Source: Bdellovibrionota bacterium (GTDB lineage Bacteria; Bdellovibrionota_C; UBA2361; JBGSMV01). From it: a stretch of DNA of 14,787 nucleotides. The notes beneath the pieces were generated by a model, which had not been told where the DNA came from, did not search any database, and saw only the letters and a program-made list of their open reading frames with translations. Position 1 is the stretch's first letter. Each line of letters starts with the position of its first letter. Positions 3,810-12,905 of this stretch are shown in pieces. A program made the position numbers and the translations under genes. The stretch is from assembly GCA_044356455.1 (NCBI GenBank), contig JBIKWF010000109.1:1-14787 (forward strand), in the 5' to 3' direction.

Positions 3810-3901
3810 TGTGAAAATATCGAACTCTTCCTCAGGAAGACCTGAAAAACTTTCTTTTTGAACTCCGTGTTCCCCGTGGTGAATTTCTTCATGTTCACAC
3901 T

Positions 3902-4028
3902 TGGGACACCCACTTTTTGTTCATTGAGGGCCCGCGAGCTCGAAACCTTTTCACTAACCATTCGAAATGATGAGCCATAGCATCGAATTGCTACCTTGTG
4001 CGTGATCGTGGAGTCATTGGGTGTCCCA
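3902..4028. repeat. Family B inverted-terminus element, copy 2 (127 bp)
   Basis: Perfect 11-bp inverted termini TGGGACACCCA (3902-3912) and TGGGTGTCCCA (4018-4028). 105-bp interior. CAGGGGG occurs twice at the right end. Confidence 0.75.
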
Positions 4029-4066
4029 GGGGGAAACCTTCAGGGGGAGCTCACTAGGGGAGCGGC

Positions 4067-6211
4067 TCATTTCTTCTCGCGTTCCCAGCCTTCTGTGCTG
4101 CTCCGCATGATACGCGTGGTGGAATACATAAGGTGCTCCCATGCGTTCGGGCTACCTTCAGCACGGTAATGTTCTTCCATTTCCCCGAAGGCGGCCATCG
4201 CTTCGGTTCCATAACGTCGCAGCAAAGCCTCAAAGTGTTGAATGAAGTTTGAGGGTAATCCTCGCATTCCAAATTTGAATGCATCAACGAGTTTTGGGAG
4301 TAGTTCTGCAGAAGGCTGAGCTTCAGCCTCCGCAAGAAGTTTTATGCAGCCGTGAATTCCCGAGCGCTGCAGTTCAAGTTCTTCTGGTTTTGTGGGAGAC
4401 CAATAAACAAGCTCATTAAGCGCGGTCGCGACCCAACTCGAATCCCCTTGCACCTTCGTGGGCAGGTTTGAAAGTCTATCCATGCAGAAGGCAATCTGTT
4501 CCGGTGACCGGCCAGCTTCTGTGAGACGGCGAAGAGACGGATGGAGAAGCTCGTTCTCACAATCGAGCATTTCAGTTGCCCGCAAACGAATTGTTTGCCG
4601 CGGTTCAGTTTGAGCTCCCATTAGTCCAAGCGCTGTTTCTAAAAGCGCATCCACTCCAGTCTGATCAAGGGCCGCAAAAACCATCTTCGCTGAGCGCTCA
4701 TAGATAAAGGGGCTTAAGCCGGGACCCACCACGGTATTTGGCGGCAGCTCCTCCGCGCCCCAGAGCCGCAGCACCTCAGCAAAGTCTTCAGTCATGTAGT
4801 CTGACTTGTCGTGACAAAGAATCGCTTCGACCGCCTGGGGGCCCATTGCAGCGAGCGCCACTACTGCGCCGCGCCGATGTGACTTATCGGCGTCAAAGAG
4901 GTCCAAAATTATCTTGTCAGGTGCACCCTGGTGACGGTCGTAGAGCATTGCCGCCTTCAGAAACACTTCACGGGGGAGGTCACCTACGTACGCGGCTCGA
5001 CCGGAAACGTCTCGAATTGCTGGTAGCGCTTGATTGGCTTGGTGAACGAATTCACGGTCCTCGAGCCCGCCTATTTTCCCAATCGTTCCGACGCAAACGG
5101 ACTGCACGCGCTGCCTAGGGGCTGGAATGACATTGGGAGGCAGGGAATCCGAAAAAGAACAGTTCGTCCACGGGTATTGCGGAAGCCTCGCGGGAGCGTC
5201 TCCTATCTTGAGAAGGAACGGCCTTTCGTGCCGAACCATACTACCGAGAGCTACGCGATCGTCCCGGGTCTGTACAAAGGGCTTGAGCCCGAAACGTTCT
5301 CCAAGCGCCAAAAGAACTTCCTCTGAACGTTCGATACCCAAGCCATTGGCTCCGCGAAAGCAGCGCATCTCTCCAAGAGGCGTTACCAGCGACACCTCGT
5401 GCAAAGTCGAATAGGCAAAGTGAAAACGCAGAAGGGGAGCACTTCCTGCGGCCACCCGCGCTCCATATTTCTCTACGGGCGCGAAGAGCTCAAAATCGTC
5501 GCCATCTTTTCCTCCCGAGCTTGGAAGTCTGCATTCTTTGGTCAAGAAGCGGTACAACGCTTCGCTGAGAGCGTGGCAGTCTGACAATGTAGTTCTAAGA
5601 GTTTGAGCATTTGCAGGTTCTTCTTTGCGCAGGAGTGCCGCGCCAATACCGGGGGGCAGCACATAGGTAAGTGCGTTCCCAAGGTCGCGCGCGGTAGCCC
5701 ACGCGATTCTCTCGCGCGCGAGAAGTACATTCTGATGAAAGACTTCTACCTCAGTAGCATCGTTTGGGAATGCGGCGCGGTAGTCTGCTAATTTAGGGTT
5801 GTCGCCAATCTTTTCTTCAATCGTGATTATATTTTGGCGGCGAAGCTCTCTGTCGTCTTGAGTGAGTCCATCGCGAAAGTAAGGATCCTGCGTGAGCGAG
5901 GTAAGGTGTTCAAAGAGATGCCGAGGTGAAAATCGTTCAGGCAGCTCTGTCATCGCTCGTGCAAAGAGTGCTCTCACGAGTTCGTCTGTTGAGGGTGGGA
6001 GCGTGCCCTTGGCTCCAAGCGCACGTGCGCGCGCCACCGCGGAGTCTGGTGCGGATAGCGGAACATCTAGGGAATTTTCAAGCCCCGGTTGTTTGGAAGC
6101 AGTAGAATGCACACCTGCTATTATGCTGGGTTTAGGTAACTTCGTCTCACAGGCAGGAACTCGGCAACTCTCCGGAATGCCTCGAGTTACCAACTGCGTT
6201 TGGAGGCTCAT
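4067..6211 (-). CDS. Large hypothetical protein (714 aa)
   Basis: 2.1-kb uninterrupted ORF. Pro/Ser-rich N-terminus and a helical-looking C-terminal third with one HEAT-like stretch (RRGAVVALAAMGPQAVEAIL). No family recognised. Confidence 0.8.
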   Translation of the reverse strand: MSLQTQLVTRGIPESCRVPACETKLPKPSIIAGVHSTASKQPGLENSLDVPLSAPDSAVARARALGAKGTLPPSTDELVRALFARAMTELPERFSPRHLFEHLTSLTQDPYFRDGLTQDDRELRRQNIITIEEKIGDNPKLADYRAAFPNDATEVEVFHQNVLLARERIAWATARDLGNALTYVLPPGIGAALLRKEEPANAQTLRTTLSDCHALSEALYRFLTKECRLPSSGGKDGDDFELFAPVEKYGARVAAGSAPLLRFHFAYSTLHEVSLVTPLGEMRCFRGANGLGIERSEEVLLALGERFGLKPFVQTRDDRVALGSMVRHERPFLLKIGDAPARLPQYPWTNCSFSDSLPPNVIPAPRQRVQSVCVGTIGKIGGLEDREFVHQANQALPAIRDVSGRAAYVGDLPREVFLKAAMLYDRHQGAPDKIILDLFDADKSHRRGAVVALAAMGPQAVEAILCHDKSDYMTEDFAEVLRLWGAEELPPNTVVGPGLSPFIYERSAKMVFAALDQTGVDALLETALGLMGAQTEPRQTIRLRATEMLDCENELLHPSLRRLTEAGRSPEQIAFCMDRLSNLPTKVQGDSSWVATALNELVYWSPTKPEELELQRSGIHGCIKLLAEAEAQPSAELLPKLVDAFKFGMRGLPSNFIQHFEALLRRYGTEAMAAFGEMEEHYRAEGSPNAWEHLMYSTTRIMRSSTEGWEREKK

Positions 6212-6220
6212 AAGCTACTT

Positions 6221-6373
6221 CAGCAAACTGGTACACCCCAACTTTTTCCACGTCGGTTTTGGAGCGACTCTCGGTCGCATCCTGAACAAATTCAAAATGA
6301 TAGCCTGGCGGAATATGCCGCAGAGTTAATCTGGGTCTTATTCGAAAACTTGGGGTGTACCAGCTTCTGCACC
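6221..6373. mobile_element. 153-bp family A element, copy 2
   Basis: Identical by eye to 6976-7128 and in the same orientation as the other copies. Begins 9 nt upstream of the ATG of the 714-aa gene. Confidence 0.85.
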
Positions 6374-6400: not shown

Positions 6401-6847
6401 CTAAAGCGGAATCTGACGCGTATCAAAAAATGAGGCATTAAAGAGTCTCACCCAAACCACAAACACAGAGAGCGCAGCCAAACCGCTCGAAATAACAACC
6501 CGAGTTGTCCGGCTTTTAACTTTCAAAAGGTAGGGTAAAGGAGCCAAACATAGGGCCGCAACTAGTAGGTACAGGGCGCTGTCTGATGCAATCCAGTTGA
6601 AGAAGTCGTTAACTTCTGATGTCAACCGCCCGCAGCCGCTGTAGCAAATCTGAGGCCCCGAGCCGTTGGGCGTGAAATATTCATACCTTCTATCTCTTTG
6701 GAGCTCGCGTTGAAGAGCGAGCATCAAGAAACAACAAATCAGGTAAACGGCCTGCCACAATAGGACAAACGCAAGCCAGAGGAAGGGTTCTAGTGAGAAT
6801 AATGAAAACTTCGACCGAGCCGGCATCGAGACATTAGAATCTACCAT
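6401..6847 (-). CDS. Small membrane protein with about 3 TM segments (148 aa)
   Basis: SD-like AAAGGGG shortly before the ATG. Three hydrophobic segments and a loop containing CYSGC. Flanked by elements A2 and A3. Confidence 0.7.
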   Translation of the reverse strand: MVDSNVSMPARSKFSLFSLEPFLWLAFVLLWQAVYLICCFLMLALQRELQRDRRYEYFTPNGSGPQICYSGCGRLTSEVNDFFNWIASDSALYLLVAALCLAPLPYLLKVKSRTTRVVISSGLAALSVFVVWVRLFNASFFDTRQIPL

Positions 6848-6975
6848 TACTCAGACCCCTTTCAGATAAGTTTCAGGTGTGCTTTTTGTTGTTATGGAGA
6901 AAACGAATAAGTAGGACGCCTGATTCGGACACCCAAGATTTCAGACGTGCCAAATTTCGAAATATCGATTTCCTA

Positions 6976-7128
6976 CAGCAAACTGGTACACCCCAACTTT
7001 TTCCACGTCGGTTTTGGAGCGACTCTCGGTCGCATCCTGAACAAATTCAAAATGATAGCCTGGCGGAATATGCCGCAGAGTTAATCTGGGTCTTATTCGA
7101 AAACTTGGGGTGTACCAGCTTCTGCACC
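6976..7128. mobile_element. 153-bp family A element, copy 3
   Basis: Identical by eye to copy 2, with the same inverted termini and internal hairpins. Confidence 0.85.
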
Positions 7129-7212: not shown

Positions 7213-7995
7213 TTATAGCCTCTCCCACAACAGTTCGAACAGAGCGCACATCGTCTGGTAGTACTGGGGTTGGGTGATCTCAACTGCCATCTGGCTGCCC
7301 TCAGCATAGTTGGTTAGAAAAACGGAATCGCGGGCTAGGATGACGTCCGTTTGGAGCGCCGCCTCGCGTGGGACCTCCTTTATCTCGTGATTCGGATTTC
7401 GAATTCGGCGGCGATACCAGTCGAGTCGTGGTCCGGAAACGGCGATATCTCGAATACGCGGTTTTGTGCGAGCCGTCTGCTCAAGAAACTTGAGTACGAT
7501 AGCCCCAACGGCACCAGAGGTAGCACTCTCGGGATCCCAGAATGATCTAAAATCTCCGCTGCAGAGGACGTCCGAGAGCATCACGAGTGCGCCCTTGCCG
7601 GATTCTGCGGTGCGGATTCGAAGGTTACCCACTTGCAGGTGCGACCGTCTTTGGATCTTGGGGAGCTCCTCGCTCAGAAGCGTGGCGGCCAGCGCGACGT
7701 GGGCAGCTCGTTGCTCCGCCTCTCGCCTCAGTGACTCAACAATCAGGCCCGGATCCGCAGGGACATAGGTCACAATCTTCGTGCTCTGATCTCGGTGCAC
7801 TAGTCCGCGCTGCTCGAGATTAGTCAGTGATGAATAGACCGTAGAGCGCTTGATCTCTAGGCGGCGTGCGAGGACACCACCCGACGTTGGGCCTGTGGTC
7901 ATAAGATCCGCGAGGACGGTGCCCTCGGTGGTCGGGATCCCACACCGTTCCAGAAGGTTCACGATAGGTGGATGTTGTCGATCTTTCATCGGCAT
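7213..7995 (-). CDS. TrmB-family winged-HTH transcriptional regulator (260 aa)
   Basis: N-terminal pattern GxTxxExxV...GPTSGGVLARRLEIKRSTVYSSLTNLEQRGLV...Y.P.DP, a coiled linker, and a C-terminal effector-like domain ending FELLWE, as in TrmB-like regulators. Confidence 0.88.
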   Translation of the reverse strand: MPMKDRQHPPIVNLLERCGIPTTEGTVLADLMTTGPTSGGVLARRLEIKRSTVYSSLTNLEQRGLVHRDQSTKIVTYVPADPGLIVESLRREAEQRAAHVALAATLLSEELPKIQRRSHLQVGNLRIRTAESGKGALVMLSDVLCSGDFRSFWDPESATSGAVGAIVLKFLEQTARTKPRIRDIAVSGPRLDWYRRRIRNPNHEIKEVPREAALQTDVILARDSVFLTNYAEGSQMAVEITQPQYYQTMCALFELLWERL

Positions 7996-8040
7996 TTCTA
8001 TATCACATAATCTACTATAATTAATATAGAATTTATGATT
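7996..8040. promoter_or_regulatory. AT-rich divergent promoter/operator candidate
   Basis: TATAAT at 8016-8021 on +, and inverted repeat TTCTATAT (7996-8003) / ATATAGAA (8024-8031), between two divergent GC-rich genes. Confidence 0.5.
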
Positions 8041-8128
8041 TCTAGCTCATTCGACGAACTTATTTCAGCGGATATTGGAGACTCTCTTCACGACCCGCAC
8101 TGAAGCGAGGTCTTTAAAGAGGAGTGAT

Positions 8129-9058
8129 ATGGAAGCAAATACGGCAGTTCAATCAGGGAGCCTCGCGAATCTTTCTGCACCAGTCACAGCACCGCCAGTG
8201 CCGCGGATCGACCCCAACACGGGCTATCCGCTCGAGTCGCGTCTCTGGGTGCTTGGGGGGAGCGATCTCGAAATGAAGGTAATCGCCGGGCTGCTGCGGC
8301 TCGCAGGCGAGCGCTTTGTACAGCCGCGTAAAGAATGGGGCAACCACTCCTTTGATCCATCGGATCTCGGGATCGAAATGGTTGCGCGCGAATCCTCGTA
8401 TCACGGAGGGTTGGATCGCCGAAAGGAGCACCTTCCACGTGAGGGTCTTCCGAGGCTCTACGTCTTCGTTGAGTGTTCGCCTGGCAAAGGTTGGGAAGAC
8501 ACTAATCCAGTAGTTCTCGACCACCATGGCGAGCAATCTCAGTGGCCAGCCGCGGTACTACAGGTGCTGAAGAAGCTCGACTTGCAGATATCTGAACCGA
8601 CTCGGCGCTTCATCGAGCTGGTCGCGGCGAACGATGTCGCTCATATCGAGGGCATGCGGGCTCTTGGAGCCTCGATCGAGGAAATAGGAAGAATTCGAGC
8701 TCTCGATCGTGAGGCCCAGGGCATCGGTATTGAGCACGAGCGCGAAGCGGAGCGCGCCATCGGCAATCGTGTGCAGAAGGATCGACTCACCATTGTGTCT
8801 ATGGAGCATTCCAAGACCGCAACCGTAACAGATCGGCTCTATGGAAGTTACGACCAGCTCCTGGTCCGCTCAGGCGACGGCGAGGCAAACTTTTTCGGCG
8901 ATGGCAAACTCTGTGCGGAACTTCAGAAAAGATTCGGCGGCTGGTCAGGCGGTAGTGGTCTCGGCGTGCCAAGTCAGACGGCGTATTGGGGCATGTCAAA
9001 CGCCGGCGATAATGTTCAGAGTTTTATCGAAGAGCACCTTATGAATGGGGCTTCATGA
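8129..9058 (+). CDS. DHH-motif phosphoesterase, NrN-like (309 aa from ATG 8129)
   Basis: GAGGAG at 8119-8124 favours ATG 8129 over TTG 8075. Ordered motifs LGGSDLEM, FVE, LDHH, LQV, LVAAND, GMRALGAS.EEI..IR..DR.AQG and DRLY..YDQLLV match my recollection of the Bacteroides fragilis type III-B CRISPR-associated NrN. Confidence 0.75.
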   Translation: MEANTAVQSGSLANLSAPVTAPPVPRIDPNTGYPLESRLWVLGGSDLEMKVIAGLLRLAGERFVQPRKEWGNHSFDPSDLGIEMVARESSYHGGLDRRKEHLPREGLPRLYVFVECSPGKGWEDTNPVVLDHHGEQSQWPAAVLQVLKKLDLQISEPTRRFIELVAANDVAHIEGMRALGASIEEIGRIRALDREAQGIGIEHEREAERAIGNRVQKDRLTIVSMEHSKTATVTDRLYGSYDQLLVRSGDGEANFFGDGKLCAELQKRFGGWSGGSGLGVPSQTAYWGMSNAGDNVQSFIEEHLMNGAS

Positions 9059-9139: not shown

Positions 9140-9278
9140 CAGGCCGCATTCGCTTCTGCTTGGGGCGCGCTTAGCGCTCATGCCGCTTCCACAAGGCGCC
9201 GAAAACCCTTGCCATTAACCTCGGCGAATCCGCGGGTAGCTGTGAGTAAGTAAATCAATCGTCCTGAGTATCTCCGGA

Positions 9279-9720
9279 GGGATAGGAGGGTAAGAGCTGA
9301 ATGAGTTTCAAACTGTTTGAAGTGGGCTGGTAGCGTAGCGACGGTCGTTCGCCGTGGTGGGCTGAAATGAGGGATGTGCCCTGGTTTCGGCTCTGCCTGG
9401 TGACCGACAGGCGAGCGATTTGGGATTTTTGGCGTTGTTTTTCGGTGTGTCGAGTGATTGCGGGAACACGGGTTACGCTGCCTGGGGAGTCAAGCGAAGT
9501 CGTCAGTGATGGAGAGTTTCTCTAAAGAGAGCGGTCCACGTTCTATGAAGGTTTCAAGCACCTCATCGCGCAGCACGCCGTAAGTCGGCTGAAACCAATC
9601 TTCCCAGGCCCGCGGGAGGTCATCCCGTCCGTGGCATACAATCCGGTACAGCGGCGACTCTTCCGGTTGCCTTCGGCGGTAGTGTTGGAGCTTCGCCTGC
9701 TACCAGCCCGCCTCCAAACC
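9279..9720 (-). mobile_element. Internally deleted IS91/ISCR-like element remnant (limits approximate)
   Basis: Contains a transposase fragment at 9490-9699. Downstream on the minus strand is CTCCTATCCC (9288-9279), resembling the TTCCTATACCC-type oriIS end of ISCR elements as recalled. Confidence 0.6.
9490..9699 (-). pseudogene. IS91-family (Y2/HUH) transposase fragment
   Basis: Manual translation: QAKLQHYRRRQPEESPLYRIVCHGRDDLPRAWEDWFQPTYGVLRDEVLETF-IERGPLSLEKLSITDDFA*. The first part resembles the N-terminus before the IS91 Zn-binding domain; IERGPLSLEKL resembles the (Y)xxRxPxSLExL segment of the Y2 domain. An in-frame TAG at 9702-9700 follows a GGAGG, and there is no start codon. Confidence 0.7.
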
Positions 9721-9805
9721 CTCCTAGGACGTCCTGTGACACACTCCTAGTCGAGGGCCGCTTAAAATGCTAGTTCTTTCGAGTTATTCTTCGGGGAATG
9801 TTCCT

Positions 9806-10858
9806 ATGAAATCATTCTGGTACTCAGCCCTCTTCCTGCTCACCCTGCTGTCTGCGAGCACTGCTTCCGCAGCACCCGTCAAGCTCACGGTTGGTTTCAT
9901 CGCGGCGCTCAGTGGCTCCGCTCAAAGTTACGGGGAGGCAGCTCGCAATGGCTTTGAAATGGCGCTCCGTGAAGTTAGAGACGTTGACGTTGGAGACGGC
10001 GCAATTCATGTGATCTACGAGGATGATCAATTCACTCCTGCAAAAACTGTCTCTAGTTTTAACAAACTCGCCAACCTTGATTCAATTGACGTAGCAGTAT
10101 GCGTAGGCTCAGCCACCTGCAATGCTATCGCTCCACTAGCTCAGTCGCGCGCCATTCCTTTGTTCGGGTGGGCCAGCGATAGAAACGTATCGCTTGGGCG
10201 CTCCATGGTGATGCGTACCTATCCGAGTGGTGAGAACGAAGGAAAACGAGCTGTCGAAGAAGCTCTCAGCAAGAACTTCTCAAAAATCGGCATGATCACC
10301 ACTATCCACGATTATCCTCAATCTTGGCGGGCTGGCGCACTAGAGACTCTTAAGCCTGAAAATTTGGCCTTTGAAACTCAGGTCATGCCTGACCTTAAAG
10401 ACTTTAGGTCTCTTTTGCTTAAAGCGCGCAGCCGTGGCGCTCAAGATTTATTGCTCTGTACACTTCCCGGTCAAGCGGGGCTAATCGCAAAGCAAGCTCT
10501 TGAGTTGGGAATAAAACCAAAAATTGGTGGCTGCGAGTTTCTATCGGATAAAAACGAACTCGCCCTTTCTGGCGGAGCTCTCAAGGGCGGCTGGTTCATC
10601 ACCGTTCAAGTCGCTCAAGCTTTTCGTGCGAACTACCTTGCTCAGTATAAGAATGACAATGCCATTTCTGGTGCAGTGGTTCACTACGATTTGGGAAAGC
10701 TATTACTCAAGGTGGCCGGAAAAGTTACCCGCCAAGAGTTAATTTCTGCGCTATTAAATCTGCGCCAGCATGAGAGCGCGGCTGGAACCGTGCTACTCAA
10801 GAACATCGAAGAGGATCGTTACTTTGAATATCCTCTCGTAGCTCAGATGATAGGGTAA
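9806..10858 (+). CDS. ABC-type periplasmic substrate-binding protein, LivJ/LivK-like
   Basis: Signal peptide from ATG 9806 (MKSFWYSALFLLTLLSASTASA|AP) with GGGGA upstream. Motifs VGFIAALSG..QSYGE..RNG.EMA, IYEDDQ..P, DFRSLLLK, and F...Y...Y. Confidence 0.9.
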   Translation: MKSFWYSALFLLTLLSASTASAAPVKLTVGFIAALSGSAQSYGEAARNGFEMALREVRDVDVGDGAIHVIYEDDQFTPAKTVSSFNKLANLDSIDVAVCVGSATCNAIAPLAQSRAIPLFGWASDRNVSLGRSMVMRTYPSGENEGKRAVEEALSKNFSKIGMITTIHDYPQSWRAGALETLKPENLAFETQVMPDLKDFRSLLLKARSRGAQDLLLCTLPGQAGLIAKQALELGIKPKIGGCEFLSDKNELALSGGALKGGWFITVQVAQAFRANYLAQYKNDNAISGAVVHYDLGKLLLKVAGKVTRQELISALLNLRQHESAAGTVLLKNIEEDRYFEYPLVAQMIG

Positions 10859-12157: not shown

Positions 12158-12781
12158 TCAGCGCGCCGAATATTCGTCAAGTACCCTGGATAAGCTCGAA
12201 ATGGCGTAGACAGGCAGGCAGAGCATATCAGTTTCAATTTCCTTCGTTCCCTCCCCAGTGACCACGCGCTGCTTAACCTTACTTACAAAACTCTTTCGCT
12301 CGGAGAGATCAAACCGTACCACAACTTTCGCGCCTTTCGCGGCCACATACTGCCAAAGCGAGCGCATCTTTCCAGTAGCTCCGGATTTGACTTCTACTGG
12401 GTAGATGCGCCCTTTCTCGGCGATCAAAAAATCAATCTCGGCCGCGCCCTCTTTGCCTCCTCGCAACCAATAATAGAGCTCTGTCAGCTCAGTATCTCCT
12501 CTCCTAAATACCAAATGCTGCGCAATAAACTGCTCAGCCAGGAAGCCCTTGGTGAGTAGCTCCTCTGCTGGGAGCTTAAAAAGCTCCTCCCACTCCAACC
12601 CGGTTGCTGCGTTATAAAGACCAACATCTAAGAAGTATAGTTTCATCGTGCTTGGGTCCGCGCAGGCCTTCAATGGCAAACCTGAAGCCTTATTATTACT
12701 GGCTGCGTACACCACACTCGCTCTCGCCAAGACCGCGATAGCTTCTCTCACTCGACTAGAATGGGCGCCTGAAAAACTTAT
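12158..12781 (-). pseudogene. 5'-truncated AAA_14/DUF4143 ATP-binding protein (C-terminal half only)
   Basis: Motifs KLYFLDVGL, GFLAEQFIAQHL, LYYW, AEIDFLI and YPVEVKSG (DUF4143 with PD-(D/E)xK-like end). No Walker A/B. The nominal TTG start (12793) and first codons fall inside the left end of element B3. Confidence 0.82.
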
Positions 12782-12905
12782 TGGGACACCCAATTTCTAT
12801 AGCCGAGAGTGAGGGCTGAAGTTCCCCTTAAGCGGCTAACGGCCTGAAATAAATAGTCGCCCTGCTTCGGCCTGAATTAGGCAACGGGAAAGAATGGGTG
12901 TCCCA
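12782..12905. repeat. Family B inverted-terminus element, copy 3 (124 bp)
   Basis: TGGGACACCCA (12782-12792) and TGGGTGTCCCA (12895-12905), with a 102-bp interior. Confidence 0.75.

Follow-up and report, generated by a model that had tools for sequence, protein, structure and literature searches.

Results

A stand-alone NrN-family gene facing a TrmB-family regulator

The window analysed here, a stretch of 14,787 nucleotides from a Bdellovibrionota bacterium (assembly GCA_044356455.1, contig JBIKWF010000109.1), carries two open reading frames (ORFs) in head-to-head arrangement, one for a TrmB-family regulator of 260 residues and one for a 309-residue phosphodiesterase of the NrN family (Table 1). 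To our knowledge, NrN is known solely as part of CorA-type CRISPR immunity, and we know of no explanation why destruction of its messenger, S-adenosyl methionine-adenosine monophosphate (SAM-AMP), is needed in defence. The window corresponds to contig C100 of G000, a genome of 4.70 Mb in 216 contigs (93.3% complete), whose RecA relatives at 82–83% are named Deltaproteobacteria or Oligoflexia bacterium; in the following, L-numbers denote genome or metagenome loci, P-numbers protein matches, C-numbers contigs of G000 and G-numbers genomes. The contig also carries a flagellin gene and is chromosomal rather than of phage or plasmid origin. The 133-bp gap between the two ORFs is 64% AT and reaches 77% AT in the 60 bp nearest TrmB, as compared to 47.5% in the genome; ORFs, protein families and AT content agree with an earlier sequence-only reading, which had described a DHH protein facing a TrmB-type regulator across an AT-rich gap of this length. 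No sigma-70 consensus promoter was found in the gap. Contigs from other lake metagenome runs cover the junction without differences (X3, 7574–8289; X2, 7983–8232), which is therefore not an assembly artefact.

The 309-residue protein matches the PADLOC families C3a116 (E 2e-40) and DHH_CorA (E 3e-25), and a sequence search of the PDB returned solely NrN chains (9lq9, 9lqa and 9lqc; E 1.6e-21 to 2e-20). Scans against Pfam and NCBIfam yielded no family match, Pfam DHH included. Its AlphaFold model (predicted local distance difference test 88.6) retrieved NrN structures at Foldseek ranks 1–4 (E 5e-20 to 7e-18), followed by generic DHH enzymes (E 7e-8). Identity as a generic NrnA- or RecJ-type enzyme was rejected on these grounds, the protein being closer to NrN than to NrnA, DhhP or RecJ. 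Thus, judged by sequence and predicted structure, 8129–9058 encodes an intact NrN-family phosphodiesterase, in agreement with the NrN match of the sequence-only reading.

The characteristic motifs are all intact, namely GGxDxEM (43–49), E115, DHH (131–133), AAND (166–169), DRxAQG (193–198) and D235-R236. Alignment with 25 CRISPR-type and 82 other rows shows that D46, E48, E115, D131-H132-H133, N168-D169, R190, D193-R194, Q197, E204 and D235 are kept, and of the positions invariant across the 25 CRISPR-type rows only L68, A72 and L116 have changed. D46, E48, D131-H133 and D169 correspond to positions mutated in studied NrN proteins (E21A and D119A in PDB titles; D85/H86/H87 in PMC10600005). The N-terminal ~35 residues, an extension absent from most relatives, are modelled with low confidence as disordered. 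NrN is present as a single copy in G000, next to two separate genes with Pfam DHH domains.

Profile and repeat scans of the window confirmed that it is devoid of cas genes, corA and an array. In the genome as a whole, RAMP, Cas1, Cmr2, Cas10 palm and mCpol families had no match (each matched in control genomes), and neither a CRISPR-type CorA nor a SAM-AMP synthase was found in G000. Two CorA matches elsewhere in the genome are housekeeping-like, one of them being matched by PADLOC CorA at E 8e-4. A simple repeat scan listed four candidates of 3–4 repeats, which resemble repetitive extragenic palindromic (REP) sequences and with which no cas genes were found.

NrN relatives outside CRISPR loci

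A total of 679 representatives match NrN at E ≤ 0.001. Scanning species genomes yielded 91 confirmed stretches and a set of 79 loci; the scan patterns were built from close relatives, and the ratios given here describe the branch of the window NrN and not all NrN. The best genome matches are labelled Patescibacteria, followed by gut Alphaproteobacteria. Among the top 50 genomes, 47 have no RAMP gene and 48 are 0.6–1.9 Mb in size, whereas RAMPs occur in 18 of the remaining 30 records. The window NrN is at most 55% identical to any relative (45–55% to the best CRISPR-free ones, 27–40% to CRISPR-linked ones). In phylogenetic trees it falls inside a clade of 12 rows that is made up of Patescibacteria genomes and of contigs from metagenomes, with a Shimodaira–Hasegawa approximate likelihood ratio test (SH-aLRT) support of 100 in a tree built on 47 of the 110 rows and a FastTree support of 1.00 in a tree of all 110. 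This nesting, together with the presence of NrN in a single genome (the window's own) among the 124 of the host phylum, argues for a lone import, and we infer transfer from a Patescibacteria-like donor. A sister position to the TrmB-facing L008 (FastTree 0.93) was dropped; IQ-TREE instead groups the protein with L087 and L088 (support 90), and no specific donor arrangement is claimed. Likewise, an approximately unbiased (AU) test of grouping the window NrN with CRISPR-type NrNs (p 1e-7) was left unused as confounded, the CRISPR rows not forming one clade in the free tree.

Neither local cas or corA genes nor a RAMP gene in the genome accompany 55 of the 79 genome loci. In 8 of these 55, a family that destroys type III signals lies beside NrN or is fused to it: Crn4 (Unk01) is fused to NrN in L016 and L017, a gene resembling STIV B116/AcrIII-1 stands beside it in L011, and SAM-AMP-lyase-like genes lie directly upstream in L053, L057, L062, L078 and L081. 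Among metagenome loci, L088 contributes two Csx3 genes, L097 Csx20 and L090 another AcrIII-1-like gene, and scanning of 38 long protein matches revealed three fusions to Csx3, one to Csx20 and one to Crn4. Outside NrN loci, Crn4 was found in 9, a lyase family in 2 and AcrIII-1 in 1 of 401 Patescibacteria genomes.

Other arrangements were seen as well. In L037, L044, L045, L047, L050, L054 and L069, all from Patescibacteria and forming an NrN clade of their own, NrN is divergently paired with a PolyA_pol/CCA-type nucleotidyltransferase, possibly as a synthase with its hydrolase or as a pair for RNA repair. Beside NrN, or fused to it, there is a second DHH-like family that is unannotated and ends in GWGG...GSPQG (L091:1034–3416, L092, P0016, P0013), and ~900-residue NrN fusions with a C-terminal KH domain occur in Patescibacteria-type genomes (L014, L015, L029, L104–L107). 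Fusions to reverse transcriptase-Cas1 are found in the CRISPR loci L027 (5050–7881) and L163. A search of 50,697 phage records with NrN gave no match and plasmid matches were distant; a viral scan with the single NrN protein found nothing either. Among the relatives, a 235-kb complete jumbo-phage record encodes a divergent NrN (L083:7755–8603) and has no RAMP.

The TrmB regulator, its history and a candidate operator

The regulator matches Pfam PF01978 over residues 15–82 (E 2e-10), and Foldseek places its model with TrmBL2 (5bpd, E 2.7e-12) and also with TrmB, including a phospholipase D (PLD)-like C-terminal domain. A word-index search with the protein found itself alone. Its nearest relatives are four proteins of the same order (L165–L168; 28–35% identity), with which it groups at SH-aLRT 99. 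Opposite these orthologues lie genes for two GNAT-like proteins, a binding protein and one unknown protein, but never NrN. The Patescibacteria regulators that face NrN all belong to one 10-row clade (support 97–99), which includes L226; the window TrmB lies outside, and forcing it in is rejected (p-AU 2.7e-6, the group having been named after the first tree). Co-transfer of TrmB and NrN was accordingly discarded as a candidate history, since the trees place TrmB with orthologues of the host order and NrN with Patescibacteria.

TrmB–NrN divergent pairs recur elsewhere. In 5 of 29 Patescibacteria-type genomes, the NrN run ends within 3.5 kb at a TrmB gene in divergent orientation, whereas TrmB density would predict 0.09. 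Of the 29 genomes, 21 have at least 2.5 kb of upstream DNA; the 3.5-kb limit was set post hoc, and related genomes do not count as independent cases. Further cases are the metagenome loci L097, L098 and L102/L103, and L185 from the even sample. In L103, the Rfam DUF805b RNA motif (7929–7963) lies just upstream of NrN in a TrmB-headed cassette. In L226 (3574–4427), a Patescibacteria TrmB faces a SAM-AMP lyase (E 5e-17 to PDB 9gad) and Crn4 (E 3e-13), with no cas gene in 5.2 kb and no RAMP in its genome G066.

With TrmB resident in the host order and NrN imported, the pair arose independently here; the simplest history is insertion of NrN behind the promoter of a resident TrmB, which makes the pairing real but convergent with that in Patescibacteria. 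An inherited two-gene module is contradicted in this genome by the grouping of TrmB at support 99, by orthologues that never face NrN, and by the single NrN in the phylum. Each of the four further TrmB genes in G000 stands opposite a gene for a LivJ-type binding protein, 113–156 bp away, and a gene of this type in the window (9767–10858) is separated from TrmB by NrN and the remnant of an IS91-family element. This gene is possibly the original divergent partner, and it is plausible that NrN split an ancestral TrmB/binding-protein pair. This history is weakened by the fact that the window's binding protein is not the reciprocal best match of the binding-protein partner in L166; a joined form devoid of NrN was not found in the other runs. 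Within the remnant, 9242–9536 is 96% identical to contig C198 and 9526–9690 shares 45% identity with an ORF of G000 in which PF14319 (Zn_Tnp_IS91) and PF04986 are matched; 19-bp inverted arms lie at 9316–9334 and 9699–9717.

An imperfect palindrome at 7976–7994 is a candidate autoregulatory operator, located at the usual place for autoregulation. Orthologue alignment indicates that the true start of TrmB may be a GTG at 7962, which would put the palindrome in the leader. Counterparts lie 47–54 bases ahead of a conserved Gly codon in all five orthologues. A palindrome score of at least 8.7 of 10 is reached by 11 of 20 TrmB leaders of the host lineage as compared to 1 of 50 others, a partly circular count in that the consensus was first seen by eye in the same leaders; a de novo Gibbs search for operators found nothing above shuffles in the host leaders. 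The palindrome lies 135 bp upstream of the NrN start, the spacing at which TrmB paralogues meet their partner genes. Position and paralogue-like spacing thus make control of NrN by TrmB plausible. The candidate appears to differ from the archaeal TGM motif.

Other features of the window

An element of 156 bp, bordered by 22-bp terminal inverted repeats, is present in three intergenic copies that are 97–100% identical (891–1046, 6218–6373 and 6973–7128). Blastn detected no further copy in G000, and other runs show the same element in other flanks, as for a miniature inverted-repeat transposable element. Short REP-like repeats (GGGTGTCCCA type; 2236–2300 and 3860–4040) have many copies genome-wide. 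Four ORFs (965–2005, 4067–6211, 6401–6847 and 101–892) have no family match, and two of them share with NrN a long Pro/Ser/Thr-rich N-terminus and might be secreted. A 211-residue DUF4143 ORF (12158–12793) resembles the C-terminal half of an AAA-DUF4143 protein; relatives of the flank upstream of this ORF are present on other contigs. An Rfam scan of the window matched no family.

Table 1. Features of the divergent TrmB/NrN region and its flank, in window coordinates.
Feature	Position	Strand	Evidence
TrmB-family regulator (winged helix-turn-helix, long helix, PLD-like putative effector domain)	7213..7995	-	PF01978; Foldseek TrmBL2; tree with same-order orthologues
Imperfect palindrome TGTCG-N9-CGGCA, candidate autoregulatory TrmB operator	7976..7994		Counterparts in orthologue leaders
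Divergent intergenic region, 133 bp, AT-rich at the TrmB side	7996..8128		Sequence
Ribosome-binding site GAGGAG for NrN	8119..8124		Sequence
NrN-family DHH/DHHA1-type phosphodiesterase, 309 residues	8129..9058	+	PADLOC; PDB; Foldseek; tree
IS91-family element remnant (5' fragment of transposase), between NrN and the binding-protein gene	9242..9717	-	Similarity to C198 and a G000 ORF
LivJ-type periplasmic binding protein	9767..10858	+	Pfam PF13458, E 1.5e-34

Discussion

We tentatively propose that CRISPR-free NrN serves in counter-defence, directed at SAM-AMP-type signals made by host or prey cells, a reading that may well prove wrong. It is favoured because 47 of the 50 best-matching genomes are free of RAMP genes, nearly all of the 50 are small, signal-destroying families accompany 8 of 55 loci, and L226 joins TrmB to two such families. 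Of the three roles offered by the sequence-only reading (remote off-switch, anti-defence gene, non-CRISPR signalling circuit), anti-defence is the best supported, though indirectly.

According to this proposal, an active, metal-dependent phosphodiesterase of NrN type came from a Patescibacteria-like donor, was inserted beside the IS91 remnant and became the first gene behind the divergent promoter of the resident TrmB. TrmB would bind the palindrome at its own start and gate NrN transcription in response to a ligand, much as the paralogues probably control the genes of their own binding proteins. Least certain are the following steps: NrN would split the SAM-AMP of a victim's type III CRISPR system, or a close adenylated relative, into SAM and AMP, acting either once exported into the victim or as a sink that absorbs metabolites withdrawn from the victim. 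The victim would then fail to trigger CorA-type membrane damage or dormancy, and SAM and AMP would be recovered as by-products.

B. fragilis NrN cleaves SAM-AMP but not pApA or cyclic oligoadenylates cA2-6 (PMC10600005), and phage-borne SAM-AMP lyases and Crn4 have been proposed to be anti-CRISPRs, AcrIIIB4 having been tested in vitro only (bioRxiv 10.1101/2025.04.28.651013; PMC12830947). Delivery is the weak step of the proposal, for which the candidate secretion genes, the basic tails and the unstructured 35-residue N-terminus, as judged from sequence and model, are hints only. A type IV secretion system, possibly able to export proteins, is essential in Patescibacteria (PMC10633639). Several gut alphaproteobacterial NrNs have basic C-terminal tails, which CRISPR NrNs lack, and G000 encodes two SctV-like and one SctN-like protein besides the flagellar FlhA and FliI. 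These non-flagellar genes are located at C7:16973–18826, C184:9609–11777 and C112:41886–43190 (L250, L252 and L254), and one SctV-like gene adjoins Tad-like pilus genes. Such a combination presumably resembles contact-dependent killing machines of predatory bacteria.

Several observations weigh against counter-defence. The CRISPR-free branch has conserved residues of its own (H227-S228-K229, C262, W272 and G279), which may mean another substrate. The SctV and SctN matches fall below curated cut-offs, and the N-terminal extension of NrN resembles no other protein of G000. Most CRISPR-free genome loci (47 of 55) have no signal-destroying neighbour; where there is one, the AcrIII-1-like assignment of L011 rests on Atlas (0.92) with no Pfam or PDB match, and the lyase-like genes match solved lyases weakly (E 0.004, L053). 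Ring-nuclease and SAM-AMP-lyase seed families had no match in G000. L083 is the one viral locus among the relatives and no phage record was matched. A PolyA_pol-type nucleotidyltransferase faces NrN in seven loci and another nucleotidyltransferase family lies near it in nine, a pairing that points to RNA or nucleotide metabolism. Finally, immunity by the B. fragilis system depends on NrN (PMC10600005), and an extra NrN need not inhibit it.

The main competing explanation, which we consider possible but on the whole unlikely, is salvage or housekeeping of RNA ends: CRISPR-free NrN could be a small-nucleotide phosphodiesterase that recycles material acquired from host or prey (dinucleotides, adenylated cofactors or damaged RNA ends), often jointly with a nucleotidyltransferase, and TrmB could regulate it as a nutrient-uptake gene along with the binding protein. 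Indeed, DHH/DHHA1 relatives include nanoRNases and pApA/3'-phosphoadenosine 5'-phosphate (PAP) phosphatases, a nucleotidyltransferase is even fused to NrN in P0008, the TrmB paralogues of G000 face solute-binding proteins, and Patescibacteria generally lack nucleotide synthesis (PMC10633639). However, a housekeeping enzyme is at odds with the rare and patchy distribution of NrN, found in 4 of 400 evenly sampled Patescibacteria genomes besides the centre of the sample and once in the host phylum. Moreover, G000 already has its two Pfam-DHH proteins, the B. fragilis enzyme spares pApA, and fusions to three ring-nuclease families would not be predicted.

That NrN is a mere passenger, brought into the TrmB intergenic region by IS91-linked recombination, with no selected role and with a merely accidental likeness to the gene arrangement of Patescibacteria, appears improbable. 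Its single occurrence in the phylum, the adjacent IS91 remnant, the different divergent partner of TrmB in each of the four relatives and a window rich in repeats and orphan genes would all fit. In contrast, frame and catalytic residues are intact, and the gene has its own ribosome-binding site. Codon use is typical of G000 (63rd percentile), identity to relatives does not exceed 55% and no coding differences are listed in four other runs, which, together with the intact frame, suggests long residence.

A dedicated sense-and-degrade module, in which the PLD-like domain of TrmB would take up SAM-AMP or a related nucleotide as ligand and the regulator would then induce NrN, is not supported and in our view quite improbable. 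Divergent pairing far above expectation in Patescibacteria-type genomes, its emergence with two different TrmB clades, and a ligand-binding-type domain combined with a candidate operator speak for it. Yet the Patescibacteria TrmB clade also faces NrN-free cassettes (L226, a second copy in L008, L202) and often lies 0.7–5.7 kb from NrN with other genes between, orthologues of the window TrmB occur in genomes without NrN, and G000 yielded no SAM-AMP synthase. Sensing of SAM-AMP, or of any nucleotide, by TrmB is equally unsupported; the TrmBL2/TrmB fold with its PLD-like domain points to no particular ligand. Least probable by far is a remote off-switch for a CorA-type III CRISPR locus missing from the assembly: the genome is incomplete and fragmented and CRISPR loci often stay unassembled, but none of the type III genes or CRISPR-type CorA sought was found in G000, and NrN is closer to CRISPR-free than to CRISPR-linked relatives.

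Counter-defence could also be part of a broader scheme, which is unlikely as a whole: parasitic and predatory bacteria would carry TrmB-gated, phage-like genes that destroy type III messengers, SAM-AMP being destroyed by NrN and the lyase and cyclic oligoadenylates by Crn4, Csx3, Csx20 and AcrIII-1. The carriers would be Patescibacteria, small-genome gut Alphaproteobacteria and the window's bacterium with its extra type III export genes, and the window would hold the SAM-AMP arm, transferred, rewired to a native TrmB and equipped with an N-terminal export signal.

All components belong to established families; the window contributes the move of NrN into a large-genome lineage and its capture, independently, by a TrmB native to the host. 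The literature searched contained neither a CRISPR-free NrN branch in host-dependent bacteria nor a link of this branch to TrmB, although orphan NrN may be discussed in the publication on PDB 9lq9, and passages of PMC13294483 and PMC13622651 hold nothing on such a branch. No paper joining 'ring nuclease' with 'Patescibacteria' or 'TrmB' with 'CPR bacteria' (candidate phyla radiation) was found in a search that left subscription papers and bioRxiv supplements outside its scope, and SAM-AMP did not appear in the 25 papers listed of 630 matching Patescibacteria, Saccharibacteria, Bdellovibrio or epibiont. The branch implies either that cellular parasites and predators interfere with the immune signalling of their victims or that SAM-AMP-like molecules exist outside CRISPR. 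Either outcome would be new, and a single-domain enzyme makes the question directly testable. The second, independent encounter of NrN with TrmB hints that timing of expression, upon contact with host or prey, matters. If the broader scheme held, the window NrN would be an anti-CRISPR enzyme wielded by one cell against another, and the gene content suggests that bacteria living off bacteria may disarm the immune signals of their victims.

Comparison with known systems

The window NrN shares family and fold with the solved NrN structures (Foldseek E 5e-20, template modelling (TM) score 0.63–0.65 by query, ~27% identity), and all metal-binding and DHH residues are present. In contrast to the NrN of CorA-type III CRISPR systems, it has no corA, cas10 or cmr gene nearby or in the genome, and it is a member of a mostly CRISPR-free branch, showing additional conserved residues, a variable insert (73–110) and an N-terminal extension. 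NrnA, DhhP, GdpP and PggH, which are nanoRNases and pApA/PAP phosphodiesterases, have the same superfamily fold (Foldseek E 7e-8 to 1e-3), but identity is 10–15%, the TM score 0.3–0.47, and the window NrN has no Pfam DHH match.

The regulator resembles TrmB and TrmBL2 (PDB 3qph and 5bpd) in its winged helix-turn-helix, long helix and PLD-like C-terminal domain, and its ~260 residues equal TrmBL2 in length. It differs in belonging to a bacterial multi-paralogue family at 15–17% identity and in lacking the additional C-terminal portion found in TrmB, a chain of 335 residues. Lastly, as with AcrIII-1, Crn4b and the SAM-AMP lyase AcrIIIB4 (bioRxiv 10.1101/2025.04.28.651013; PMC12830947), a messenger-degrading family is found here away from a CRISPR locus, and CRISPR-free NrN relatives co-occur with these families or are fused to them. 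Whereas those proteins are encoded by phages and plasmids, the window NrN is chromosomal in a cellular organism and is predicted to be a DHH hydrolase rather than a lyase or ring nuclease.

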